Shown: positions 3,415-12,102, counted from the stretch's first letter. The stretch is DNA of 13,776 nucleotides from Candidatus Altiarchaeota archaeon (GCA_026394745.1 JAPKXP010000112.1:1-13776), one strand, 5' to 3'. A program made the numbers and translations. The notes: generated by a model from the sequence alone, not told the origin.

Positions 3415-3468
3415 ATAAAAAAGGGGGGTATATAAAACAATGTGCAATAATAAAACACACTATTGCAC
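3415..3468 (-). terminator. Hairpin GTGCAATA-N11-TATTGCAC overlapping the serpin stop codon, followed on the minus strand by oligo-T tracts (TTGTTTTATATACCCCCCTTTTTT)
   Basis: The perfect 8-bp arms sit at 3443-3450 and 3461-3468, spanning the serpin TAG at 3460-3462. Downstream on the transcript come a T4 and a T6 run plus a C6 homopolymer (G6 on the plus strand at 3423-3428). This is consistent with archaeal oligo-U termination. Confidence 0.4.
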
Positions 3469-4821
3469 TGGATTCTCCAACCTGCCCATGAACAATATGT
3501 TCCCGCTCTTCCTATCTTGTATTACGAACACGAACGGATGGTCTGCATTGAAAACAGTCTGCGGGCGCACTGAAGTGAGGGCGACAATAACCGCAGTAGC
3601 CGCCGCAGCCTCAGTACCCTCCTCGTTCACGTCCACGTAAGCCTTGTGTATCACGTCGCTCACGTAAAGATTCCTCGAGCCGTCCATGCCGGAAAAGTCT
3701 GCGGCGCCCGGGTCAAAGGCAGAGCGCATGCCAAGCGCAGAAAGCTTCTGCGGCAGGGAGTACTGCGTCTCAAGCCTGAACTTAGGGATGTACACGTTAA
3801 CCTGCCCGGAATGTAGCATACTCCTGACAGCCTGAATCTTTTCCAACGTAAGTGCATCCTCCATATCCGATATTGAACCCTTAGGCAGGAGGATAAGCAT
3901 GGAAGTCTCGTTGCCGTCGTACAAAAGCTCCAACGCCTGAAGCTCGTCAGTCTCGGCGTAGTTGAAGACCGCATCCTTCCCAGTACGCCTCATCATCTCG
4001 GCCTTCACGGTCTTTCCGGGGGAGACGGTGAAGTCCTGCACGCTAGTCTCGTCGGCGTTAAACTGCTTAAGCCAAGTGCCCTTAAAGTATATCGCGTTGG
4101 TGAGAACTAGGCGCGTCATCTGATTCAACGCGCCGGCGGGAATCAAGTCCCGAATCTTGTCGTTAGTCTTGTCCTCCACCCACGAGTTAATCGTCTTCCT
4201 CGAACCCTCAGCGTCGCCGACGTAGTCCAAGGCTGACACCTCGCCGCCGTAATATTCCCTGACCACCTGCACGTACTCGCCCCGGAAGAGATAATCCTTC
4301 TGAGGCCACAGCGCGTTCGCGGTGTAAAGCTGGTATCCGGACTTTACGGAATTGATTCCCAAAAAAAGAGACTTAAAGCTTTCCCTACGCGCCGCATCGT
4401 CAGCCGGCAGGTGCAGGACTGCCATCATCTCATCGGCGGTCCCTCCGCGCGCGCCCTCGAAAGTCATCGCCAAAGCCGCGGAAACGCTGAACGGGGAGAA
4501 GAAAACGTTCCCGCCGCCAAGCTTCTTGTACAGTTCGAGCGCGAAACGGTTGTTAGCCTCTACGACGCTCAAGCCCTCGTCGCACCTTGGAGGGCTGGCG
4601 CACCCGCACTCGTCCACGACGCCGGGAATTATGGTGCCGTTAACGCACCAGCCGGGCGCGGGCGATGAGAGCATAGGACACTCGCCGCAGCCGCCTCCCG
4701 GAGGCAGCGTAGGCATGGGTAGAGTAGATGAAACTGGGGGAGATGGACTCCATCCTGAAAAAACAAATCCTAGCACGCACAAACCCAAAACAGCCAACAC
4801 GACGACAAAACGCAAGTCCAT
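3460..4821 (-). CDS. Serpin (inhibitory type) with N-terminal membrane anchor, Pro-rich linker and a 6-Cys module preceding the serpin core
   Basis: The C-terminal 'FNADHPFVFVI' is a perfect fit to the PROSITE serpin signature. The hinge 'EEGTEAAAATA' (P17 E, P15 G, P14 T, P12-P9 AAAA) indicates an inhibitory serpin. Helix-A-like 'EANNRFALELYKKL' is present. The N-terminus is MDLRFVVVLAVLGLCVLGFVF (anchor), then SPSPPVSSTLPMPTLPP, then CGECPMLSSPAPGWCVNGTIIPGVVDECGCASPPRCDE. Confidence 0.9.
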   Translation of the reverse strand: MDLRFVVVLAVLGLCVLGFVFSGWSPSPPVSSTLPMPTLPPGGGCGECPMLSSPAPGWCVNGTIIPGVVDECGCASPPRCDEGLSVVEANNRFALELYKKLGGGNVFFSPFSVSAALAMTFEGARGGTADEMMAVLHLPADDAARRESFKSLFLGINSVKSGYQLYTANALWPQKDYLFRGEYVQVVREYYGGEVSALDYVGDAEGSRKTINSWVEDKTNDKIRDLIPAGALNQMTRLVLTNAIYFKGTWLKQFNADETSVQDFTVSPGKTVKAEMMRRTGKDAVFNYAETDELQALELLYDGNETSMLILLPKGSISDMEDALTLEKIQAVRSMLHSGQVNVYIPKFRLETQYSLPQKLSALGMRSAFDPGAADFSGMDGSRNLYVSDVIHKAYVDVNEEGTEAAAATAVIVALTSVRPQTVFNADHPFVFVIQDRKSGNILFMGRLENPVQ

Positions 4822-4885
4822 AACAAAAGATTAAACAGCGACGTTAAAAAACACGATAGGGATAGTAAGGGAAAAACCGGAACAA

Positions 4886-6985
4886 TTATGATTTGATTAT
4901 TGCGGCGGCTAGTGCCGTTATTAGTATTGATATTGCTGGGAAGCAGCATGTTGTTGGTGTTTGGCCTTGTGTTTTTGTGTCTGGGCCGAGGTCCGTGTTC
5001 CATTGCAATGTTGTGTTTTCTGGCGTGTTGTAGGGTTGGTCTTTGTGCGTTCCAGTGGGTTTTAGGTTGAATGTGTGGGTGTCGAAGTAGTTTTGGTTGT
5101 CTGGCGTGGAGTAGTATTTTTGCCGGTATTCCTTGGTCGTTATTGAATATGTTTGCTGCGCCGTGTAGTCTTGCGAGTCGGGTTTGACTGTTAGGGTTGC
5201 GTCGACGTCGTCTGGAAGGGGCATGAGGTAGAGTAGTCCCTGCCGTACTTCAGTGTCGTACTCGTAGTCTTTGCCGTCCGCAGGGTTGTTGTAGTGTACG
5301 GAGACCTTGTAGTAGTGGACCTCTGTGTCAGGTACTTTTATGAACGCCTTGGGTATGTAGCCTGCGGTCTCCCGGAGGGGTCTTTCGTAGTTGGATGCCT
5401 TGCCGATTTTCTCGCCGGCGTTGTATGCCATTTGAGTGCGGTTGTCCGGAACGCCGTAGTCCACGAAGAATTCTCCGACTTCGTACATGCTGTTGTTTGC
5501 CGGCGGCGGGCTGTCCCTGTAAGGCTCGAATGCGTCGCGAGCGTGATTTCCTTCGCCTGTGTCAGCGAAGAATCCGTGCTCTATGAAGATTTTGTCTATG
5601 GCGTCCGCCTTGCCGGGGAATGCCGTCCTGAATGCGGTGTAGTATTCGTAGAAGTTCTTCCTTTTCACTTTTAGTATCGGCCACATCTGGCTTAGGTTGA
5701 GCGTCACCGTGTCGCCTTGGTCGTTGTTTTTGTCGTAGAGGTCCCATAGGACGCCGCATACGGCAAACTCTTCTGCGGCGCCGGTGCTGTCCCAGCTGCG
5801 GTAGTTGTTTTCCATGCTGCCGAAGCTGGCGTAGTGCTCAGGGTCGCGGTCGCCTCGGTAGTCTGAGATTGCCAGGGTCATGAATTCGGCGAAGCCTTCG
5901 ACGAAGGAGTCGCCGGTAGAAGGGTTGATGTACCCTGCGTGGTTTCGGCTGCCAGCCAGGGTGAATCCGTCAGGCCAGCCGCCGTAGGACGCGTACATGA
6001 GGTGGTGTGCAAACTCGTGGTATTCCCTGTTTTTCGGCTTGTTTGTTGAGCCGTAGGCGCTGTCGGAGAGTCCTATCGCCACCGAGGCGTCATTTGAGCT
6101 GTAGTATGTCTTTTGCCCGCTGGGGTCGATCCTCCTGTCTCCGATGACCGCCTTGACTGGGAGGTTGTAGTCTATGTTAGCCTTGAGATTTTTTATTGAA
6201 AAGTCCACTGCCTCGTGCATGTGGCGGTATATGGCTGCTATGTTCTCCACCTCAGATAGTTTTACGGTGGATTCTATTTTAGTGTCGTTGACTGTCAAGG
6301 TTTTGACTCCTGCGGGAGCATTAATCTTCAGGTCTATGTTTTGCGCAAGGTCCTGCTCCTCCCTGAGCTTGAACTCCTTTTTGAATGACTCGGGAGTCGA
6401 CACCCCCATGAGGCCGCCGCCCAGGGATATTCCGTGATTGACTGTGAAATAGTTTTTTTCGTTCCTGAAGTAGGAGAACTCGGCTGTTAGAGTAATCTTC
6501 ACGGGGTTGGTCTTGTTGTAGTGGAATTTTCCTAGTTGTATGACGTAGCTCCCGTTCTCGTTCGTTTCGTTGTATTGGCTGCTCAACGGCATGTCGGCAG
6601 TGACTGTCATGTATGGCAGGGGATTCCCGTGGCCGTCGGTTATCCTCCCTTTCAGAGCCCACTCTTTAGGTAGTGTCGTTGTGGTTGTAGTCGAGGTTGA
6701 TGTCGTCGAAACTTCGCCTGGGCAGGGTATGTTGGGGCGGACGCAGTAGTGCATGCTCGGGCATAGGGGGTCGTCCGGCGGTTTGACGCATTCCTTAGTC
6801 AGTTCGACGTTCTTTTTACAGTTGACGTTGTCGTACATGCACACGTAATCGACGCACTTGCCTACGCTTTCCTCCCAGCTGCGGCCGGGTGGACACTGCT
6901 GCCATCCGAGGGTTGTGTTTGAAAGAGACGCTATGAGAAGTAGGATAATCGCTATTTTAGTGCCTTGCTTTAGGCGAGCCATCAT
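4886..6985 (-). CDS. Large secreted/surface HExxH protein (putative zinc metalloprotease): signal peptide, Cys-rich module, Thr-rich linker, carboxypeptidase-regulatory-like beta-sandwich, HEFAHH domain, C-terminal 'CC-hydrophobic-KS' anchor
   Basis: N-terminus MMARLKQGTKIAIILLLIASLS. About 9 Cys lie in residues 30-90. The linker is STTSTSTTTTTT. 'GRITDGHGNPLPYMTVTA...NENGSYVIQL' is a CarboxypepD_reg-like motif. 'NREYHEFAHHLMYASYGGWPDGF' contains HExxH. There are many N-x-S/T sequons. The C-terminus is ...TPTTCCFPAISILITALAAAIIKS*. TATA-like AAATATAA lies about 20-28 nt upstream. Confidence 0.8.
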   Translation of the reverse strand: MMARLKQGTKIAIILLLIASLSNTTLGWQQCPPGRSWEESVGKCVDYVCMYDNVNCKKNVELTKECVKPPDDPLCPSMHYCVRPNIPCPGEVSTTSTSTTTTTTLPKEWALKGRITDGHGNPLPYMTVTADMPLSSQYNETNENGSYVIQLGKFHYNKTNPVKITLTAEFSYFRNEKNYFTVNHGISLGGGLMGVSTPESFKKEFKLREEQDLAQNIDLKINAPAGVKTLTVNDTKIESTVKLSEVENIAAIYRHMHEAVDFSIKNLKANIDYNLPVKAVIGDRRIDPSGQKTYYSSNDASVAIGLSDSAYGSTNKPKNREYHEFAHHLMYASYGGWPDGFTLAGSRNHAGYINPSTGDSFVEGFAEFMTLAISDYRGDRDPEHYASFGSMENNYRSWDSTGAAEEFAVCGVLWDLYDKNNDQGDTVTLNLSQMWPILKVKRKNFYEYYTAFRTAFPGKADAIDKIFIEHGFFADTGEGNHARDAFEPYRDSPPPANNSMYEVGEFFVDYGVPDNRTQMAYNAGEKIGKASNYERPLRETAGYIPKAFIKVPDTEVHYYKVSVHYNNPADGKDYEYDTEVRQGLLYLMPLPDDVDATLTVKPDSQDYTAQQTYSITTKEYRQKYYSTPDNQNYFDTHTFNLKPTGTHKDQPYNTPENTTLQWNTDLGPDTKTQGQTPTTCCFPAISILITALAAAIIKS

Positions 6986-7029: not shown

Positions 7030-8103
7030 TTAGAAGCATTCGGCTTTTCCTGTGAGGCAAAGCTGCGTCATCTTTTGTATGTCGGCGAGCCACTTGTCCG
7101 CTATTTCTTTTGCCTTCTTTTCAATCTTCCTGTCGCCCACTACCTGGATGTCCGCGCAGAGCGGCTGGTCGATGGGCTTCCCGATCTGGCTCATCAGCCG
7201 CACGTACACCTGCTCCGCTCCTTCGTTTGCTATGTCTCGGGCACCGTTCGCGCGGTTTCCTCTGCCTACGCTTCCGTCGTCTCCCATCTCGCCGCTCGTA
7301 CCAGTAACAGTCAGGAATACTGAGCCTGCGCGGTAGTCGTCTGCGGTGTTTATGTCGACGACGACTTTTTCGTCTGTTATGCCTGCGATGCTGTCGAGTA
7401 TAAGCTTCTTTTCCTCTGCCATGACAACCTCGTACTCCTTGATGTTCTTGATGTGGCGTGAAACCATCGCGTTAGCGACAGTTAAAGTAATCTTGTTCTT
7501 ATATCTGACGCCCATCACCTTCACGTCTTCGCCGCTGCCCCGAATCTTCTTCTTCATCACGCCGTTGATGTACTTCTCGGTCTTGTAGACGAGCTCCTCA
7601 GTCAGTGAGAACGGAGCGTAGCTTACGCCGAATGACGTGTCATTGGACTTGGGCATTCCAGTACGACCGAACACATCCCTTAGGTCTGTTGAGCCTAGAC
7701 CAATCTTCTGGTCTACAGTCACGCCTGAAGAAACGTCTATGTGCGGGAAATTCTGTCTTAAGTAATCCCTGGCAGCCTTAATCGCGATGTCGCCGACTGG
7801 AATAAATTCGTCATCGACTTCAGTCGTTGCGCGGCCGCTCAAGAGGATGTAGATTGGCTTGATGACGCTTCCGGAACCGAATAATGGACTGCTCCTGCCG
7901 CCGACGAGCTCCACCTGGTCGGTGTTGTGGTGCATGATGTGGCCGTAGCGCTTCACGTACTCGTTGGAGAGTGCGCGGCTTACTGCTTCAGCCAGGCCGT
8001 CGCAGATGCTGTCTGGGTGTCCGATACCCTTACGTTCCACAAGCTCGACGTCTTGTTTCGCCACGGGAACGGAGTCTACGAATTCGACGGTGATGTTTCT
8101 CAT
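7030..8103 (-). CDS. mat: Archaeal-type S-adenosylmethionine synthetase (methionine adenosyltransferase)
   Basis: N-terminal 'VERKGIGHPDSICDGLAEAVSRAL...HHNTDQVELVGG' and 'LTVTGTSGEMGDDGSVGRGNRANG' are diagnostic of the archaeal MAT family and align by eye with M. jannaschii MAT. ATG at 8103-8101. Confidence 0.9.
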   Translation of the reverse strand: MRNITVEFVDSVPVAKQDVELVERKGIGHPDSICDGLAEAVSRALSNEYVKRYGHIMHHNTDQVELVGGRSSPLFGSGSVIKPIYILLSGRATTEVDDEFIPVGDIAIKAARDYLRQNFPHIDVSSGVTVDQKIGLGSTDLRDVFGRTGMPKSNDTSFGVSYAPFSLTEELVYKTEKYINGVMKKKIRGSGEDVKVMGVRYKNKITLTVANAMVSRHIKNIKEYEVVMAEEKKLILDSIAGITDEKVVVDINTADDYRAGSVFLTVTGTSGEMGDDGSVGRGNRANGARDIANEGAEQVYVRLMSQIGKPIDQPLCADIQVVGDRKIEKKAKEIADKWLADIQKMTQLCLTGKAECF

Positions 8104-9160: not shown

Positions 9161-11113
9161 TCAGTCGACTATCTTCTCCATCTTTTTTATTATTTCGGAG
9201 CCGTCGACTAGGGAGTATTTGAGGACGTCGATTAGGGTTTTCGCAGTCCTTATTATTATTTTGCCTTCGTATTTTTTCTCTAGGAGGACGTCCTTCATGT
9301 TGCTTTCCGGGATTATGACTTCTTTCATGCCTGCTTCGGCTGCGGCTTCTATTTTCTGGGTTACGCCGCCGACCGGCAGGACTTCGCCTCTGACTGTGAG
9401 CGAGCCGGTCATTGCTACTTCCTGTTTTACGCCCACGCCTTCGATGGCGGATATGACTGCGACTGCGACGCTCACTGATGCGGAGTCACCTTCCACTCCC
9501 TCGTAGGTCTGGAGGAATTGTATGTGTATGTCGTGCTTGTAGATGTCTTTCCCGCTTACGTTCTTGAACAACGCGGAGACGTTGGTGACCGCCTCTTTGG
9601 CAATCTCCCCGAGTTTTCCTGTCGCGTAGATTCTAGCGCTCTCCTTGCTTTGGGCTGGAGCGACTTCGGCGACGATTGGTAGGACCGTTCCGCCTTCGCC
9701 GAATACTGCAAGGCCGTTGACGCGCCCCACCTTCTCTCCGCTCGTTATGAGTATGTTGTATTCCTTCTTGCGTTCTAGTATTACGTCGCCGACCTGCTGC
9801 TCCATTGTCCTTGCTGACTTCTTGCCTTCGAGAACATCCTCGGTCGTCACGTACTTGTGCTTCTTTTCGCTGGCTATGTCGCCTGAAGCGCGGATGAGCC
9901 CTCCAATCTCCCTGAACCGGAGGGTGATTTTGTCGCGCATGCCAGCCTTCCTTTTAGCTTCCTTGATTATCTCTTCCACTGCCGTTTTTGTGAAGTGCGG
10001 GATTTTACCGTCCTTCCTGACTTCCTGAGCGACGAACTGCACGAACTTCTTCCGGTTTTCGTCTGTGTCGTCTATGTTCTCTTTCATGAACACCTCGTAG
10101 CCGTAGCCCCTGATTCTGGAGCGTAGTGCGGGGTGCATGTTCTCTACGACGTGCACGTTGCCTGCCGCCACGAGGATGAAGTCGCATGGAACCGGGTCTG
10201 TTATGACCATCGCGCCTGAGCTCATCTCGCTCCTTCCGGTTATTGAAAGCTGCTTCTCCTGCATCGCAGTCAAAAGGTCGATTTGCGAGTTCCCGAGCGC
10301 CCCGACCTCGTCGATGAACAAGACGCCCTTGTTGGCCTTGTTGATTAGCCCGGCGACGACGCGAAGGTGCGCTGGGGTTCCGAGTCCGCCGGTCTGAAGC
10401 GGGTCGTGCTTTACGTCGCCGAGGAGCGCGCCTGCGTGGGCGCCTGTGCCGTCGTAGAACGGAGCCATCTTTTTCCTCTCGGCGTTGTCGACTATGACCC
10501 TGGGAATCAACGTCTTTGTTGAGCCCATCATGCCGCGGATGTTGACTCCGAACAGCAGGAAGAATATTATGCCGAATCCCATCCAAGCCGCTATGACTAT
10601 GCCATCTTTTATCAGCCCGAACATGTAGGCCGTAAGCGGGAGAACGAAGAACAGTAGCAGCATCGTCAGGACTCTGCCTCCGCCGTCTCTCCCGCCGTCC
10701 ACATCCTTCTCGCGCTCTGCCTTGATTATCTTCCTGCCTTCGCCTGCTGGGAAGACTTTTATCTTCGGGTTGTTCTCGTCCTCGAGGTTTGGTATGGACA
10801 GGATGTCGACGAGCGCCTCGCAGGGCAGTAGTTCGGCCATGGCGTTCGCGAGCATGCTCTTCCCGGTTCCGGGGTCGCCGATGAGGAGTATGTGCCTCCT
10901 CTGTTTGGCGGCCTTGCGTATGGTGTCGACCGCCTTCTCCTGGCCGATGACCTGGTCGATCAGCTTTTCAGGGACTTTGATGTTCTCAGTAGTCTCGAAG
11001 TCACTCCATTTGCTCATGGAGACTGCATCGATAAGCTTTTCAGCGCTTGATGCTGCCTTGACGGGCTCTACCCTGGCGTCCTGCTTGGACTGTCTTCCCT
11101 TTTTCTCCTGCAT
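9161..11113 (-). CDS. lonB: Archaeal membrane-anchored Lon protease (LonB): AAA+ module with inserted TM hairpin and a Ser-Lys protease domain
   Basis: Walker A '[10 protein letters not shown]'. The TM insertion is '[43 protein letters not shown]'. Catalytic 'GDSASVSVA' and '[11 protein letters not shown]' are present. The ORF-track start at 11119 is GTG; the first ATG is at 11113-11111 (MQEKKGRQ...). Confidence 0.95.
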
Positions 11114-11115
11114 TT

Positions 11116-12102
11116 TCACTGTTTGCCGACGCTTTCAGGCAGCTGGTATATCATCTGGTTTGATGGTAGCGCTACGAAGTTCGTGTTCGGGTTCGTGTAG
11201 AGCTCCTCCATTATCTGAAGTTGCTTGAAGCTGTATGCGTTAGGGTTCGCCTTGATTGTGTCTGCTACCGTCTTCAGCGCCTCGGCCTCGGCTTTAGCTA
11301 CTATGATTTTGGATTCAGCCTCCCCTCTGGCAATCGCAATCTTGGCCTTAGCCTCGCCTTCTGCTATCGCGACCTGCTGGTTTGCGATTCCCTCGCCCTG
11401 AATCTTCAGCCGCTCGGCCTCCTTCTGCGTAAGCTCCAGTTCGTACTGTTTCTTGAATGCCTGCTGTTCCATGGCCTGCTTGTCTTCTATCGCGCTGGCT
11501 ATGTCGGTTGGCATTGCGACTTCCCGGACTAGCACGTCCTCGATTATGAATCCGTCCTTCTCGAACAGCGGCTTCAGCTTCACGAACGACTCCTGCTGGA
11601 GCCTTTCCCTGCCTGGGCCGTATATGTCTGTCACGGACATGTTGCCTGTGACTTCCCTTATGACGGCGCGTATCTCAGGAATCAAAGTGCCTTTACGGTA
11701 TTCTGTGGTAAGCTCCTGCACGATTGACGGCGCGGCTGATGCCCTCGTCTTGTAGAGCACTGAAACGTCGGAAGTGACGATAAGGCCCTCCTTTGTCGGG
11801 GCTGATATCGCTATGTCGTCCCCGCCGGGGTGCAGGTTTATCGTGTCTCTCGCAGTCTGCACTAGGTAGACTGACTGGACTAATGGTAGCTTGAAGCTCC
11901 ATCCGGGATTGCGGACTGAATTCATGCTGATTCCACCCCATGCCGTGTAGTCTACGCCTACAAATCCTGCTGGTATGATAACGAGTATGTCGCCGACTAC
12001 CGATAAGACGACGATAAGGAGGATGAAACCGACGAACAATCCTACCCCGGACTTGAACAAAGACGAAAACATGCCGCTGACATCATCGTATTTGGTTGCC
12101 AT
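11116..12102 (-). CDS. SPFH/band-7 (stomatin/prohibitin-like) membrane protein
   Basis: N-terminal TM '[18 protein letters not shown]' is followed by an SPFH domain and a C-terminal coiled-coil Ala/Glu/Lys-rich region ([33 protein letters not shown]). ATG at 12102. SD GGAGGG lies 7 nt upstream and a TATA-like TCTATATAAC at about -23 to -30. Confidence 0.9.

Follow-up and report, generated by a model that had tools for sequence, protein, structure and literature searches.

A predicted surface-tethered thermolysin-fold metallopeptidase-like protein and a serpin encoded side by side on a Candidatus Altiarchaeota contig, probably as independent neighbours

A stretch of 13,776 nucleotides (nt) that makes up one whole contig of a Candidatus Altiarchaeota archaeon (GCA_026394745.1, JAPKXP010000112.1:1-13776; hereafter the window, meaning the whole of the DNA analysed) was studied for two adjacent genes on its minus strand, one encoding a serpin of 453 residues and the other a 699-residue protein bearing the HExxH motif of metallopeptidases. 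The most likely reading, to which a probability of roughly 0.6 is given, is that the two are separately acting extracytoplasmic proteins that became neighbours by chance in a tightly packed Altiarchaeota genome, and independent function is preferred because linkage between the two gene families is so rare. The main new information concerns the 699-residue protein, a "hypothetical" neighbour that belongs to a sizeable, uncurated and mostly archaeal family with a predicted thermolysin fold and surface anchoring. The serpin adds little, since prokaryotic serpins resembling it number in the thousands.

Rarity of the gene pairing

The serpin gene (453 codons plus stop) occupies positions 3460-4821 on the minus strand, the gene for the metallopeptidase-like protein occupies positions 4886-6985 on the same strand, and a spacer of 64 nt (4822-4885) separates them; these open reading frame (ORF) calls reproduce exactly the coordinates, strand and spacing given in the original prediction. 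Both ORFs are genuine genes, since each product is 100% identical to an NCBI entry from a Candidatus Altiarchaeota metagenome-assembled genome (MAG) contig and each has many homologues. The pair belongs to a tight minus-strand string comprising the genes for Kae1, an SPFH/Band-7 protein, LonB, RadA, AdoMet synthetase, the 699-residue protein and the serpin, and the spacing of same-strand neighbours on the contig runs from an overlap of 4 nt to a gap of 93 nt. Because unrelated housekeeping genes (Kae1, SPFH, LonB, RadA and AdoMet synthetase) are packed just as closely, the 64-nt gap is typical of the contig and is therefore, taken alone, no sign of an operon or of co-function.

The conservation of the adjacency was surveyed from both sides. 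On the protease side, 84 other HExxH-family loci were covered (79 genome loci, 53 of them with at least 2.5 kb of downstream sequence, and five further contexts), and on the serpin side 82 loci, including the 80 closest metagenomic serpin loci and the loci of the homologue P0121. A serpin stands beside the HExxH-family gene at a single one of the 84 loci (L020, in another Altiarchaeota MAG) and is lacking at the remaining 83, and the HExxH metallopeptidase family is found at none of the 82 serpin loci. The genes downstream of the nearest homologues of the 699-residue protein are unrelated ones, namely one for an AAA-type kinase (P0002), an unknown gene (P0006) and one with a phosphatase domain (P0004/L001). 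The functional pairing implied in the original prediction thus largely fails this check.

Oligo-T runs serve as terminators in archaea, and an A/T-rich box upstream of a gene serves as the TATA element. The spacer contains T5 and T6 runs together with a TTTTTTAA box some 25-32 nt ahead of the ATG of the serpin gene, and a AAATATAA box likewise precedes the metallopeptidase gene. Such an arrangement would accord with separate archaeal transcription units for the two genes.

Some observations nevertheless weigh against two merely coincidental neighbours. At L020 the same order and orientation recur with a similarly short spacer, the serpin gene following 72 nt downstream on the same strand. By sequence distance this pair is not simply orthologous to that of the window, and brings together non-sister members of both families: the L020 metallopeptidase is the 48th of 77 by distance from that of the window and ends in a transmembrane (TM) segment with a zinc-ribbon tail, and the L020 serpin, which has an N-terminal anchor and no Cys module, is the most distant of the 65 compared. 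Two independent juxtapositions are somewhat unlikely by chance, with an expectation below 0.1 (about 0.05-0.1) for the loci examined; this figure is a rough estimate that assumes how many genes and serpins a genome has, not a calculated statistic. Some probability is therefore left for a functional link. Furthermore, both proteins are predicted to share one side of one membrane, and no serine protease target of the serpin is identified on this contig.

Among the alternatives, the one that survives best, though we regard it as unlikely, is a functional surface module of an indirect kind, in which the enzyme would switch the serpin off by cleaving its reactive-centre loop (RCL), or the serpin would guard both its tethered neighbour and the envelope against a serine protease. 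It draws on the recurrence at L020 of gene order, strand and short spacer between proteins that are non-sister to those of the window, and on the predicted membrane-tethered, extracytoplasmic placement of both products. The RCL segment AVIVALTSV is rich in medium-sized hydrophobic residues, which thermolysin-type enzymes prefer (PMC9890683), and the RCL of alpha-1-antitrypsin is cut by thermolysin, aureolysin and pseudolysin (PMC8907207). The latter case resembles the present one in that an enzyme of thermolysin fold shares a compartment with a serpin whose RCL is hydrophobic, the documented cuts falling within the loop (PMC8907207), but it is an inter-organism affair of pathogen versus host without genetic linkage, and cleavage of the window serpin by its neighbour would be conjecture. 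Surface-anchored inhibitors encoded beside secreted peptidase genes are likewise known, and miropin, a surface lipoprotein serpin for which a protective role at the cell surface has been proposed, offers a model for the protection of a tethered enzyme and of the envelope (PMC9890683). Set against all this are the near-complete lack of the pairing at the surveyed loci, the unrelated genes downstream of the closest homologues, and the T runs and promoter-like box of the spacer with the separate transcription that they suggest. The architectures at L020 also differ from those of the window in the tail of the protease and the missing Cys module of the serpin, and hydrophobic RCLs are generic in the clade of the serpin.

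A stronger proposal is that the juxtapositions in the window and at L020, apparently independent of each other, mark an Altiarchaeota surface module, with the serpin controlled through RCL cleavage or acting on the metalloprotease in a non-canonical, non-covalent manner; we hold this to be doubtful. Were it true, no earlier prokaryotic case would exist of a metalloprotease and a serpin that are linked genetically and form a regulatory pair, and a functional linkage of any such kind would supply a tractable prokaryotic model of serpin control by a metalloprotease, which the evidence does not favour. Chance neighbourhood of two independent surface proteins stays the preferred reading.

Two further comparisons of gene order were made. 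The closest genome locus, L001 of Altiarchaeales SpSt-1148, carries a TspO gene (5779-6255) about 3 kb downstream of its metallopeptidase homologue; its product is 56% identical to that of the window gene at 1669-2154, which is similarly placed downstream, and the slot beside the peptidase gene is taken by a DSP-phosphatase-domain gene in place of the serpin, giving a weak indication of residual synteny without the serpin. A serpin (P0211) and an HExxH homologue (P0052) that may share one Woesearchaeota contig were considered as a candidate pair and rejected, as they do not lie within 8-10 kb of each other.

The 699-residue protein and its family

The 699-residue protein shows a thermolysin-like catalytic fold of two subdomains in its predicted AF2 model (confidence, pLDDT, 83.7), and the top structural matches of that model in fold comparison are thermolysin, LasB and enzymes of the families M1, M36 and M61, with an identity to thermolysin of 7% in the structural alignment. 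The catalytic domain spans residues ~229-540 (window 5366-6301, minus strand). Within it lies the motif HEFAH at residues 323-327 (6005-6019), extended to HEFAHH by His328, and the helix carrying it (318-334) is followed in the model, as the next helix, by that carrying Glu363 (358-376). His323, Glu324, His327, His349, Glu363, Glu405, His470 and Arg538 are invariant in 93 aligned homologues at 22-50% identity, and HExxH is present in 114 of the 116 homologue hits, the two without it being short (403 and 448 residues). Because its putative catalytic residues are invariant across the homologues and the modelled fold is that of thermolysin, the HExxH is read as a real active-site motif of a predicted enzyme rather than a motif lodged in a non-peptidase fold, in line with the metalloprotease-like nature proposed beforehand.

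By analogy, His323, His327 and Glu363 would hold the zinc ion, Glu324 acting as the catalytic base. Glu363, which sits in the sequence EGFAEF (codon at 5897-5899), would then be the third ligand of a gluzincin, with counterparts in Glu166 of thermolysin and in the NEGFA motif of M1 enzymes.

The alternative of an incidental HExxH, in a protein of surface or adhesin type that lacks catalysis, owes what standing it has to the sequence searches. No peptidase family is assigned to the protein in Pfam or NCBIfam. Among the 25 most-matched Pfam families for 33 members at E<=1 there is no peptidase, whether M4, M1, M36 or MA_2; and searches of PDB sequences with the single sequence (phmmer), with a profile (hmmsearch) and with the 64-residue active-site segment returned no peptidase, the only matches of the protein being Ig- or transthyretin-like adhesin domains. 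Surface proteins, moreover, typically have beta-sandwich domains and Thr-rich linkers, and both are present here. The invariance of His323, Glu324, His327 and Glu363 over homologues as divergent as those aligned argues so strongly the other way that we consider this alternative highly improbable. The profile search that had been recommended for assigning a peptidase family yielded none by sequence, and it was fold comparison alone that tied the protein to the peptidases.

The closest known enzymes are the thermolysin-like gluzincins of clan MA(E), that is M4 (thermolysin, LasB, aureolysin), M36 (fungalysin) and M1. From these the protein differs in the spacing from HExxH to the glutamate, which is 35 residues with an inserted beta-hairpin (thermolysin has 19, M1 enzymes 18), and in its flanking beta-sandwiches, its predicted C-terminal membrane anchor, its mostly archaeal distribution and its want of an FTP/PepSY propeptide. 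Assignment to M4 proper was considered and rejected, as Pfam detects neither similarity to Peptidase_M4 or Peptidase_M4_C nor an FTP/PepSY propeptide. The protein is thus best described, from sequence and model together, as belonging to an uncurated family within the thermolysin-fold clan. When the catalytic domain alone is compared with 1.84 billion cluster representatives, 872 match at E<=1e-3 and 516 at E<=1e-10, from which the family may be sized at ~500-900 sequence clusters at 50% identity. It is mostly archaeal, with named members in Altiarchaeota, Methanolobus, Methanosarcina, Woese- and Nanoarchaeota and also a few bacteria, and its proteins are at present annotated as "hypothetical" or "carboxypeptidase-regulatory-like". 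By the usual criteria it would count as a peptidase family new to clan MA, and it provides a candidate extracellular protease for Altiarchaeota, DPANN archaea and Methanosarcinales.

Around the catalytic domain, the features anticipated in the original prediction were largely recovered. A signal peptide-like N-terminus (residues 1-27, MMARLKQGTKIAIILLLIASLSNTTLG, 6905-6985, with a model helix at 7-20) precedes a Cys-rich module and a Thr-rich linker (together 6674-6895). The module holds 8 Cys (residues 31-88) and not the 9 counted earlier, further Cys following at position 410 and as a pair at 680-681. The linker at residues ~92-104 contains the stretch STTSTSTTTTTT. Residues 22-102 have pLDDT <50, so that the module has no confident fold, and the corresponding N-terminal regions of the homologues vary in length and Cys content. 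Then comes a transthyretin/CarboxypepD_reg-like beta-sandwich at residues 108-207 (6365-6664), seen as such in the model; the carboxypeptidase-regulatory-like domain proposed here is matched weakly in the protein itself (E 2.3e-4, under the gathering score of Pfam) and is matched in 32 of the 33 family members. Beyond the catalytic domain a second beta-sandwich at residues 548-670 (4976-5344) is modelled with pLDDT ~94.

The C-terminus comprises a CC-F-P motif and a hydrophobic anchor (residues 680-699, 4889-4948), for which Kyte-Doolittle window means reach 2.27 over residues 677-699 and a helix is modelled at 682-698. A secreted protein had been proposed; the signal peptide-like N-terminus agrees with export, and the overlooked C-terminal TM anchor at 677-699 predicts a protein that is tethered, not simply secreted. 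Endings differ from clade to clade: the closest Altiarchaeota relatives have the CC-x-P anchor, seven more distant homologues carry a PGF-CTERM instead, and elsewhere in the family the C-termini consist of a TM segment with a Lys-rich or zinc-ribbon tail; the three kinds of ending all indicate, as far as sequence tells, surface tethering.

Taken together, the protein would be exported by its signal peptide and held at the surface by the Cys-Cys-x-Pro motif and hydrophobic anchor, and would display in order the variable Cys-rich module, the Thr-rich linker, the transthyretin-like beta-sandwich, the zinc-peptidase domain and the second beta-sandwich. It would most likely degrade or process extracellular or surface proteins and peptides.

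A few observations on the family may be added. The window protein and the 15 homologues closest to it have in common the ending Cys-(x)-Cys...Pro...Leu, after which come a hydrophobic tail and a few polar residues (homologues noted for it are P0002-P0015, P0017 and P0041); the ending has the look of a sorting or anchoring signal specific to this clade and has no match among the NCBIfam models of CTERM sorting signals. Cytoplasmic zinc ribbons form the C-terminus of P0021, P0039, P0070 and the L020 member. In P0089 and P0095-P0103, which are distantly homologous to the catalytic domain, there are fusions to EF-hand calcium-binding domains, and in P0089 to a thioredoxin domain as well. At L008, L021, L050 and L166 there are two copies, or a second large CarboxypepD_reg gene, near the metallopeptidase homologue, and at least two MAGs possess two or more paralogues (L003/L004; L020/L074); the family is one that expands by duplication, which complicates orthology calls.

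The serpin and its relatives

The serpin matches PF00079 with an E-value of 2.8e-115, its residues 88-451 (3469-4560) aligning with positions 1-370 of the 370 in the profile. Solved serpin structures found by PDB sequence search align over residues 87-451, the best being SERPINB1 (4ga7, E 9e-82) and the prokaryotic serpin 8gxv, and the modelled core has pLDDT >93 throughout, so that the core is complete and confidently modelled. The C-terminal signature FNADHPFVFVI begins at residue 424, as found by regular expression with a PROSITE-type pattern. The hinge EEGTEAAAA at residues 400-408 agrees with the ExGTEAAAA consensus for P17-P9 (PMC8233489), including the small residues at P12-P9 and the Thr at P14. 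By every sequence mark the serpin is of the inhibitory type, as had been supposed, and inhibition is predicted.

The RCL, from P17 to P7', covers residues 400-423 (3553-3624), with EEGTEAAAATAVIVALT up to P1 and SVRPQTV beyond it. Counting 17 residues from the hinge, as the usual rule has it, gives a predicted scissile region of Leu415-Thr416/Ser417 with P2 Leu415, P1 Thr416 and P1' Ser417, and the length of the loop up to FxADHPF is, as read from the sequence, that of SERPINB1-type serpins. These residues weakly suggest subtilisin-, elastase- or chymotrypsin-like targets. In the AF2 model residues 402-415 (3577-3618) form a beta-strand beside strand 5A, a loop-inserted topology (latent or relaxed-like) instead of an exposed one, which may be a bias of the prediction and leaves the native state uncertain; the model indicates only that insertion of the RCL into sheet A would be sterically plausible.

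Ahead of the core, the hydrophobic segment and the 6-Cys mini-domain described earlier are both present. The segment, residues 4-21 (FVVVLAVLGLCVLGFVF, 4759-4812), is a putative signal-anchor or signal peptide, with a mean of up to 2.72 in a 19-residue Kyte-Doolittle window and a modelled helix at residues 3-21. The mini-module at residues 45-80 (4582-4689), with a Pro/Ser-rich linker before it, has its Cys at positions 45, 48, 59, 72, 74 and 80, an additional Cys15 lying within the hydrophobic segment; its pLDDT is <50, corresponding to no confident fold. The Cys modules of the serpin and of the 699-residue protein show no similarity to each other.

The anchor and Cys module were previously held to be unusual, and archaeal serpins to be rare, and neither view is supported. 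More than 8000 database proteins match the serpin at E<=1e-30, including ones from Woesearchaeota, Aenigmarchaeota, Methanomicrobiales and Halobacteriota, and thousands of metagenomic prokaryotic serpins are ~50-60% identical to it. Nearly all of the 120 nearest homologues have the hinge EEGTEAAAAT, most of them begin with a signal, lipobox or anchor segment, and several (P0120, P0121, P0123, P0131 and P0225) bear other sorts of Cys-rich extension at the N-terminus. In the phylogenetic survey of Spence et al. most prokaryotic serpins likewise have the ExGTEAAAA hinge and a transport peptide at the N-terminus, and their functions are described as obscure (PMC8233489). Given so many relatives with the same hinge, and with recurrent N-terminal segments and Cys-rich extensions, the serpin can be regarded as ordinary, a standard member by sequence of a very large prokaryotic group resembling the clade-B serpins.

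The closest known system is that of the prokaryotic "hub-like" inhibitory serpins, represented by Tk-serpin of Thermococcus kodakarensis, Pnserpin of Pyrobaculum neutrophilum and miropin of Tannerella forsythia. Like them, the window serpin has the complete fold, the ExGTEAAAA hinge, the FxADHPF signature and an N-terminal segment for export or anchoring, and among PDB entries it is most similar to clade-B serpins, SERPINB1 being an example; it differs in having a 6-Cys module that separates the anchor from the core and in the unusual Thr predicted at P1. The archaeal serpins so far characterised inhibit subtilisin-, elastase- or chymotrypsin-like enzymes (PMC8233489). In the literature searched, serpins and Altiarchaeota are nowhere mentioned in one paper.

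On the preferred reading of independent function, the serpin would be tethered or exported via its N-terminal hydrophobic segment and would act by the standard suicide-substrate mechanism on a serine protease (subtilisin-, chymotrypsin- or elastase-like) or a cysteine protease outside the cytoplasmic membrane, thereby shielding envelope proteins in general. Serpin inhibition proceeds through a covalent acyl- or thioacyl-enzyme intermediate, and zinc metallopeptidases form none. Because a serpin cannot covalently trap a zinc metallopeptidase, a true cassette of the classical potempin/KLIKK-peptidase type, in which the serpin directly inhibits its neighbour, is ruled out, and we rank direct inhibition as the least probable of all the alternatives, even with the adjacency, the shared localisation, and the precedent in the operons of Tannerella forsythia of membrane-anchored inhibitor genes adjoining those of secreted or surface peptidases, including a thermolysin-type M4 enzyme (PMC9890683). 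In those operons the inhibitors are class-matched lipoproteins encoded upstream, their genes overlapping or lying within 5 bp of the peptidase gene (with one exception at 876 bp upstream) and being co-transcribed (PMC9890683), whereas here the inhibitor gene lies downstream by 64 nt with intervening T runs, is mismatched in class and is not conserved in its adjacency. The original prediction was right to caution against taking a classical protease/inhibitor cassette for the obvious reading.

No protease family is enriched among the immediate neighbours of the 80 nearest serpins. At 17 of these 80 metagenomic loci (L108, L117, L121, L122, L124, L127, L130, L136, L137, L142, L148, L150, L151, L154, L156, L157 and L164) a divergent ORF of ~327-355 codons lies ~300-400 nt upstream of the serpin gene, its product showing a membrane segment at the N-terminus and a lengthy helical stretch. 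As no Pfam family occurs in more than 5 of the 117 neighbour proteins scanned, these 17 products have no common Pfam match, and the recurrence is probably lineage synteny within one group.

Other genes on the contig

Elsewhere on the minus strand, the SPFH/Band-7 (HflK/C-like) gene at 11116-12102 overlaps the GTG start of the LonB gene (9161-11119) by 4 nt, which suggests translational coupling, LonB being a membrane AAA+ protease. The pair recalls the bacterial HflK/C-FtsH arrangement, but with LonB instead of FtsH. The archaeal-type AdoMet synthetase encoded at 7030-8103 has only 357 residues and scores below the NCBIfam equivalog cut-offs. Against the 395-position Pfam profile it gives two matching stretches, the better of them covering positions 1-289, and it appears to be ~40 residues short relative to its family.

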